Shown here piece after piece: positions 25,595 through 25,710 of a DNA stretch of 64,000 nucleotides. How positions within the stretch are numbered: the first letter of the stretch is position 1; the number at the start of each line of letters is the position of its first letter. Under the pieces are notes generated by a model that ran no database searches, had not been told where the DNA came from, and worked only from the letters and a program-made list of their open reading frames with translations. Origin of the DNA: Promethearchaeati archaeon. Lineage in GTDB: Archaea; Asgardarchaeota; Heimdallarchaeia; Heimdallarchaeales; Heimdallarchaeaceae. The position numbers and the translations under genes were made by a program. The stretch is from positions 156,551 through 220,550 of the forward strand of contig JABLTJ010000007.1 in NCBI GenBank assembly GCA_013166775.1, given 5' to 3'.

Positions 25595-25710
25595 GTAGCT
25601 ACTCCAGATATCTGTATCTGTATAATTATCAATTTTTCTAAATCTAAGAATGTTATTCAAAAAATCTTAAAGAACGAGTAATCTTACTCTCTTCTTATTT
25701 TTCTTTTATT
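25595..25710 (+). repeat. Array repeat copy 5: 87-bp relic of the hppA C-terminal coding sequence plus dyad/T-tract
   Basis: 25595-25681 aligns without gaps to hppA 19669-19755 (64/87 nt by hand count) and translates VATPDICICIIINFSKSKNVIQKILKNE* versus VAALAICLWIVIKLVRSKNIIQKLLKKE*. Confidence 0.9.

Follow-up and report, generated by a model that had tools for sequence, protein, structure and literature searches.

When e14 or phage 21 occupies the Escherichia coli gene icd, a 163-bp dead 3' fragment (icd') remains at the far side, according to PMC6379469 (citing Hill et al. 1989). At Rhs, CDI and T6SS loci, 'sequential displacement' strings orphan 3' fragments after a conserved 5' gene, as set out in PMC5361080. 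The tycheposon islands of Prochlorococcus grow beside a seed gene and hold scattered partial copies of its 3' end (10.1101/2020.12.28.424599). Integrase-less attC clusters (CALINs) and integrons are known from Archaea (10.1101/2022.02.06.479319), and the known Asgard elements (aloposons, HeimV1, Yucahu-i) rely on tRNA genes or an 11-nt AT-rich motif, with integrases and large backbones (PMC8813620, PMC11529989).

The window analysed here is a 64,000-nt stretch of an Asgard genome from marine sediment (G000, a MAG 88.7% complete, which encodes two actins (441-447 bits) and ribosomal protein L31e), and the comparison set consisted of 25 species-level genomes of the genus, all MAGs. A variable island of 10.5 kb extends from hppA, which encodes a proton-pumping pyrophosphatase, to a conserved gene of 319 aa, and a ~50-nt module, R, splits it into cassettes of 1.0-1.9 kb with 1-2 genes each in mixed orientation. 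R comprises the last ~7 hppA codons (~22 nt), the TAA, a palindrome (AGAGTA/TACTCT) over the stop codon and a T tract. Six copies in one orientation were found within 7 kb 3' of hppA, two of them degenerate, and copy 5 is joined to a longer dead piece of the hppA tail, hereafter the relic. The features are listed in Table 1.

As at icd, the 3' end of a protein gene is duplicated here, the live frame is complete and a dead 3' fragment lies beyond the insert; direct 3'-end repeats flanking inserts next to an intact hppA are features of an integrative element. However, e14 is a prophage that encodes an integrase itself and has a single att pair, whereas the hppA locus has six tail copies of very different lengths, cassettes of 1-2 genes and no integrase that we could find. 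The orphan 3' fragments downstream of hppA (copy 5, and the relics of the relatives G001 and G012) resemble those of the Rhs/CDI/T6SS arrays, which share the feature of moving between strains as blocks. Those arrays encode polymorphic toxins that come with immunity genes and are subject to diversifying selection, in contrast to the hppA tail, which is an ion-pump helix with a KKE end, and to its unrelated cargo. In tycheposons, too, seed 3' copies are traces of older events and island DNA is mostly cargo without element genes, but their seeds are tRNA or tmRNA genes and they carry tyrosine recombinases; here the seed is the hppA stop-codon region and no linked recombinase was found. A likeness to integrons and CALINs may be seen in cassettes of 1-2 genes closed by an imperfect palindrome, two of these sites being degenerate here; crossovers inside the site and a toxin-antitoxin cassette are further points of resemblance. 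An integron is headed by IntI and attI, whereas the hppA array is headed by hppA and PF00589 had no match in G000. The attC consensus has RYYYAAC/GTTRRRY boxes, which on direct reading are absent from R, and the mixed gene orientation is unlike that of integron arrays. The known Asgard elements belong to the same superphylum and have defined sites, but none has been reported at hppA. Each of the first four families fails on a defining feature, be it the integrase, the toxin/immunity logic, the tRNA seed, or IntI and attC.

Table 1 Features of the hppA locus and its variable island, numbered from the first nucleotide of the window.
Feature	Position	Strand	Evidence
Resident hppA (767 aa)	17452..19755	+	Pfam H_PPase, 751 bits over aa 17-690; ORF
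R copy 1, resident stop-codon module	19733..19790	+	
Cassette 1: L-lactate permease family gene (LctP)	19857..21548	+	Pfam PF02652
R copy 2, intact; retains about the last 9-10 hppA codons (..VIQKILKKE, stop)	21562..21620	+	
Cassette 2: Fpg/Nei DNA glycosylase	21647..22492	-	Pfam PF01149 + PF06831
R copy 3, degenerate (deletions; hairpin lost)	22574..22617	+	local alignment score 42 vs shuffle maximum 34
R copy 4, degenerate	23770..23806	+	score 33 vs shuffle maximum 29
Cassette 4: amidohydrolase_2 (-, 42% GC) and TetR regulator (+)	23813..25553	.	Pfam, GC profile
hppA-tail relic: last 29 codons + stop of a type-A hppA allele	25595..25681	+	64/87 nt
R copy 5 core, intact; overlaps the 3' end of the 87-nt relic	25660..25712	+	
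Cassette 5: MNT (nucleotidyltransferase) + HEPN (HepT) toxin-antitoxin-type pair	25839..26706	+	Pfam
R copy 6, intact; minimal left extent (~22 nt 5' of stop)	26803..26855	+	
HExxH peptidase homologue within the island, three ORFs (pseudogene)	26838..28095	-	ORFs
Conserved 319-aa gene, far island border	30234..31193	-	tblastn + blastn synteny

The last ~77 aa of HppA lie outside the H_PPase profile and add an extra membrane helix and a basic KKE tail (ending ..QKLLKKE); this C-terminal extension is genus-specific. The first-pass annotation had reported an ungapped 87-bp match between the last 29 hppA codons and a segment further 3', and this was reproduced exactly: 19669-19755 aligns with 25595-25681, 5.9 kb 3' of the live gene, with 64/87 nt identical and TAA at the end of both. 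When the hppA 87-mer was compared with the entire 3.85-Mb genome on both strands, the gene itself matched at 87 positions, the relic at 64 and every other site at 48 or fewer. In 300 simulated 12-kb first-order Markov sequences, the maximum match averaged 41.6 (sd 1.4, top 48). The genome-wide scan and the simulation together rule out a chance match as the source of the relic. The annotation had also argued for more than a terminator motif, and the 5' 45 nt of the relic, which lie outside the short repeat core, are indeed 29/45 identical to hppA (P = 3.8e-7 at fixed register), as befits a true remnant of the hppA 3' end. Identity drops sharply 5' of 25595 to about 28%, the background level.

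The frame described earlier as still open is open from 25541 (46 codons), which carries little weight since ATG, GTG and TTG are all absent. Relative to the resident tail, 16 codons are changed (13 non-synonymous, 3 synonymous), and radical changes fall at conserved positions of the membrane helix (L>P, A>D and W>C, with loss of a conserved Trp). Because a start codon is absent and the changes are of this kind, the segment is a non-functional remnant of the hppA 3' end and not a gene. An independent small gene, encoding a single-pass membrane micropeptide, would account for the 46-codon open frame, whose translation is reminiscent of a membrane helix with a basic tail; the missing start codon rules such a gene out, the substitutions in the relic are helix-breaking, and no homologues other than hppA tails were found in the genus. 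Logan contigs from three marine-sediment runs reproduced 17400-24459, 24437-31400 and 25315-26692 with 0-1 differences, so the region is not an artefact of a single assembly. A small gene or an assembly artefact as the source of the relic is thus scarcely credible.

Single contigs left the window sequence at 26715 (run X3) and 25516 (run X1), and these divergences, which coincide with the borders of the MNT-HEPN module and the end of the TetR gene, may be population variants of the island. At the contig level, no recombination event was seen directly, and no credible joint of R-by-R deletion or of a circle was found, every listed joint having a side of 26 nt or less; joints such as 25715>27722 and 18575>22559 were discounted for their sides of 21-26 nt. 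Loose ends at 19435-19475 were also set aside, as they apparently come from other organisms' contigs that match only the conserved hppA core.

The core of R was confined to the hppA locus in a scan of the G000 genome, which rules out a genome-wide repeat or MITE as its identity. A shuffle test of the alignment had been proposed in the first-pass annotation, and all six copies outscored 500 shuffles. The arms of R are imperfect inverted AAGAAAGAG / CTCTCTTCTT around a ~8-nt spacer that contains the stop codon. Copies 5 and 6 are identical at 37/38 positions (91% over 53 nt), and copy 4 retains ATCTAAGAA.ATCAT (codons SKNII), followed by a 13-nt deletion. The codons had been read correctly: copies 2, 5 and 6 have AAA-ATC-TTA-AAG and the resident gene AAA-CTA-TTA-AAG. 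On the minus strand, the T tract of copy 6 (26838-26855) forms the KKKRK-stop end of a convergent ORF.

R may be conserved simply as a transcription terminator. Each allele has a palindrome, but in three registers, and the Lys codons and the T tract downstream pair with each other almost automatically. Hairpin energies were ordinary (single-sequence z about -1.2), RNAalifold returned 0 pairs for a consensus structure or covariation across resident tails, no Rfam family matched the R repeats even at E up to 5, and a scan for bacterial-type terminators did not pick R up. An R-like stop-codon palindrome with a T tract also ends another Lys-tailed membrane gene (G006:C81 3400-3460), and the R-style gene end is not unique to hppA.

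The scanned cargo genes comprised transporters, enzymes, regulators and a TA pair, with no element backbone; two small membrane proteins are also encoded between R copies. The GC profile of the island is patchy (25-42%). In the amidohydrolase region (window 23800-24800), GC reaches 42%, against a genome value of 33%, and it falls to 25-27% in the small membrane genes beside it. Homologues of the L-lactate permease gene in relatives (68-69% nt identity) lie on contigs other than the hppA-hit contig. Five other genomes have homologues of the MNT-HEPN pair at 74-80% nt identity, R being absent from the 8-10 kb retrieved around each, and this homology (window 25789-26732) stops about 70-77 nt inside both flanking R copies. 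On the 3' side of copy 6 are the HExxH peptidase pseudogene and a gene for a solute-binding protein of family 5. The former is 67-69% identical at the nucleotide level to intact-length paralogues or orthologues, and full-length relatives occur at G000:C14:57500-58766 and in other genomes. The 319-aa gene matched no Pfam family.

Synteny 5' of hppA is conserved across the genus. The 319-aa gene marks the far island border in G000 and in G001, G005, G010 and G012, where it lies 4-10 kb 3' of hppA, and the intervening content differs in every genome examined. Arrays of R in the orientation of hppA were found in G013 (4 copies), G010 (3 copies, counted over contigs C60 and C74, which overlap by 141 nt), G012 (on three contigs), G001 (3 copies) and G015 (2 copies). 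G021 has one R copy, and no hppA was found in its assembly. Strong R matches occurred across the genus only on hppA-linked contigs. Many relatives' assemblies break 1-3 kb 3' of hppA or inside the conserved C-terminal motif, which fits repeated or variable sequence there.

The copies differ in how much of hppA they retain. The left extent is a minimal ~22 nt in five unrelated cassettes and 30-36 nt in others, and four copies include long coding pieces (87 nt in G000, 102 nt and about 420 nt in G012, about 200 nt in G001), giving tail extents of 22 to about 420 nt 5' of the stop. The G001 relic (~200 nt) has a frameshift and an internal stop, and the G012 relics span 111 and 34 codons; in both genomes the relics lie 80-145 nt 3' of a resident type-B stop. 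Three versions of the hppA 3' end (C12, C35, C192) coexist in the G012 MAG, 86-91% alike and each with a different island, which may reflect a strain mixture or real paralogy; two of the three contigs start inside the conserved GDPFKDT region. A winged HTH + bPH_2 cargo gene (G010:C74 843-1817; G012:C192 3201-4175) reads through the terminal R copy, so its protein end is hppA-like (..EVIQKILKKE); the G001 version has a stop codon before R.

In G020, which has the nearest hppA allele, a single gene separates hppA from a conserved thioredoxin/zinc-ribbon gene, whose place in other genomes is close to the far island border, and for this reason the G000 island looks like an accretion. No island DNA common to G020 and G000 was found. 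The closest relatives' assemblies are without the island, and the G006 contigs stop before it. No G000 cassette was shared at the nucleotide level with the other sampled islands, and a related-locus search of genome contigs returned only an unrelated Bdellovibrionales match.

Among the relatives, junctions could be placed within R itself. The live hppA on G012 C192 (150-400) is type B through its last sense codon and type A from GAGTAATC onwards, where it has 2 differences from G013 in the ~190 aligned nt shown; the match continues into the island, with 96.7% identity over 2.1 kb downstream. By alignment, this type-B/type-A crossover falls at the stop codon, where the imperfect identity available extends over only ~16 nt. 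The R copy between cassettes f and d of G001 (G001_R3) is a hybrid: its left half is that of the cassette-f R, and its right half is that of G013_R4, the copy that precedes d in G013. Cassette c has the same left half at its end in G013 and G010, and the sequences part after GAGTAATC. On these alignments, the junctions map to the R core. Private variants are also common to R copies within a genome (ATT-ATT in two G001 copies, ATC-TTA in three G000 copies). The left end of cassette f does not lie at R but at a poly-A run, to the left of which three different neighbours occur; since cassette left ends are not at R, a simple circle-integration model fails.

DNA has also passed between species. 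When G001 is compared with G010/G012/G013, identity is 93-95% for cassettes f and d but only 73-77% for the ATPase flank, a difference that indicates horizontal transfer between species. The flanks of G010, G012 and G013 are 94-95% alike, yet cassette order and content differ, indicating fast turnover; the cassettes common to these three may be inherited. The hppA gene of G012 shares 70% identity with its G010/G013 counterparts and 87-94% with type-B genes, with a flank at 94-95%, and that of G014 is 87-91% identical to G010/G013, with a flank at 72%. The pump gene itself thus appears to have been exchanged between species of the genus. The hppA phylogeny conflicts with that of the neighbouring ATPase gene in G012 and G014 (L076, L085).

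A purely local origin, in which the hppA terminator was copied within the genome by slippage or unequal crossing-over and reused by neighbouring genes, with no foreign DNA, is difficult to reconcile with R-bounded cassettes at 93-95% identity between distant species and with hybrid R copies that combine parts from different lineages. Most intact R copies do sit after plus-strand genes (LctP, TetR, HEPN), and the private in-genome variants of R point to exchange between copies. However, the resident tail is no closer to copy 5 than to the tails of other species, and island content differs in every genome examined, so that we regard local duplication as highly improbable.

We propose instead that the relic and the R array are, rather probably, scars of crossovers at the hppA stop-codon module that joined in DNA from relatives. 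R would act as the crossover point; a junction further 5', inside the coding region, would leave a longer dead tail, and copy 5 would be a junction scar of that upstream kind. As the G000 cassettes are not shared with other sampled islands, the case for the G000 array rests on analogy with the relatives, by which we infer that recombination at R built it.

A site-specific integrative element offers another route to the same repeats. An element with an integrase and an attP carrying an hppA 3' end would have integrated within hppA and rebuilt the gene with the tail it brought, the native tail surviving as the relic and the integrase having since been lost or acting in trans. The same-orientation repeats of the hppA 3' end that flank inserted DNA agree with this, and R looks like a core site, with arms around a ~8-nt spacer that holds the stop codon; in addition, three junctions in relatives cluster within that spacer, five unrelated cassettes have a common minimal left edge at about -22 nt, and the ~16 nt of imperfect identity at the type-B x type-A crossover is short for homologous recombination. 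Against this stands the search for the enzyme. In G000, the interval from hppA to the far border yielded no recombinase, nor did those islands of relatives that were examined, and profile searches with PF00589, PF16795 and PF01797 gave nothing linked to the island. PF00589 had 21 matches in 13 genomes of the genus but none in G000 or G016, nor in G010, G012 or G013, of which G010, G012, G013 and G016 bear arrays; at 19 fetched tyrosine-recombinase loci of these incomplete MAGs, neither R nor the hppA tail was present, nor an attP copy on a free or elsewhere-integrated element. Elsewhere in G000, on other contigs, we found one 76-aa SSV-type integrase fragment, the only trace of a tyrosine recombinase, two serine recombinases (PF00239) and eight TnpB-like genes (PF07282). 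The cassettes are 1-2 ordinary genes without an element backbone, the left extents of the tail copies vary, and no breakpoint was seen in the resident tail. An integrative element of this type therefore seems decidedly unlikely, and the likeness to tRNA-targeting integrative elements suggested in the first-pass annotation was not supported, as the defining recombinase was not found in any island examined.

The annotation had further held that incoming DNA carried its own hppA 3' fragment, crossed over inside the gene and displaced the older tail, which would survive as the relic. An incoming hppA 3' fragment is borne out in relatives, by the replacement of the tail or the whole gene in G012, but not in G000. 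Sliding-window identity gave no breakpoint in the last ~30 codons of the G000 gene, G020 and a G012 relic being nearest in both body and tail, with the comparison of the gene body limited to where G020 data exist; in this comparison, the G000 resident tail shows no sign of foreign origin. The relic matches every type-A tail, the resident included, at 58-65/87, and this equidistance rules out placing copy 5 on one lineage and means that the direction of any displacement cannot be read. The ATC-TTA and CTA-TTA variants both occur among hppA alleles of the genus. By these codons, the resident tail and copies 2, 5 and 6 are assigned to different allele lines, whose relative age the variants do not give.

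Among the relatives, G001 has type-B-clade flanks and a type-B resident tail, whereas its type-A relic and the adjacent cassettes match another clade at 85-95%. Most simply, this relic would have come in with donor DNA and would not be a displaced native tail; a two-step history is possible. In G012, by contrast, it is the resident gene that is the foreign part, so both directions occur in the genus.

Displacement in G000 could also have proceeded with no integrase. A linear fragment from a relative, made up of the hppA 3' part and cassettes 1-4, would have recombined by a homologous crossover inside hppA and been closed by an illegitimate join at native codon -29, a case of homology-facilitated illegitimate recombination that would leave copy 5 as the native tail and make the resident 3' part donor DNA. 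G012 lends this some weight, since its whole hppA is foreign to its flanks (70% vs 94-95%, against G010/G013) and dead type-A tails with differing truncation points lie directly 3' of it. On its left side, copy 5 starts abruptly, at no special sequence. Copies 2, 5 and 6 have ATC-TTA, the majority variant among type-A tails of the genus, and the resident has CTA-TTA, in common with a G012 relic. However, the missing breakpoint, with G020 and the G012 relic nearest in the available gene body and tail, copy 5 being no nearer any sampled lineage than the resident tail is, and a G001 relic that is most simply the donor's piece all speak against such a displacement, which we consider unlikely.

Returning to crossovers at R that join in relatives' DNA, the enzymatic basis would be either short-homology or illegitimate recombination by the host machinery or a site-specific recombinase acting in trans. 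The arm-spacer-arm structure of R, the three spacer junctions, the common left edge and the ~16-nt crossover favour a site-specific enzyme; the variable left extents, cassette left ends off R, shared private variants and the lack of a linked recombinase favour host recombination. It is conceivable, and we suggest it only tentatively, that R is the core site of an undescribed Asgard cassette-exchange system, its palindrome being cut and rejoined by a recombinase encoded elsewhere that is host-borne or of an unrecognised family. If so, the R system would be an integron-like gene-capture platform on a housekeeping gene, with neither IntI nor attC, that moves genes between species.

On its own the relic is a modest finding; its value is that of a scar that exposes a process. 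Gene exchange in Asgard archaea is little known, and the few described elements rely on integrases and tRNA sites. At the hppA locus, a housekeeping gene's stop codon forms a defined hotspot with no visible integrase. Close species have differently rebuilt islands there, distant species have cassettes in common through transfer, and the anchor gene or its tail is swapped. If the crossover is enzymatic, it would amount to a new system of gene capture and offer Asgard genetics a natural landing pad. If it proceeds by short-homology or illegitimate recombination, the locus would give Archaea a clear example of 'sequential displacement', which until now has been described for toxin loci of bacteria.
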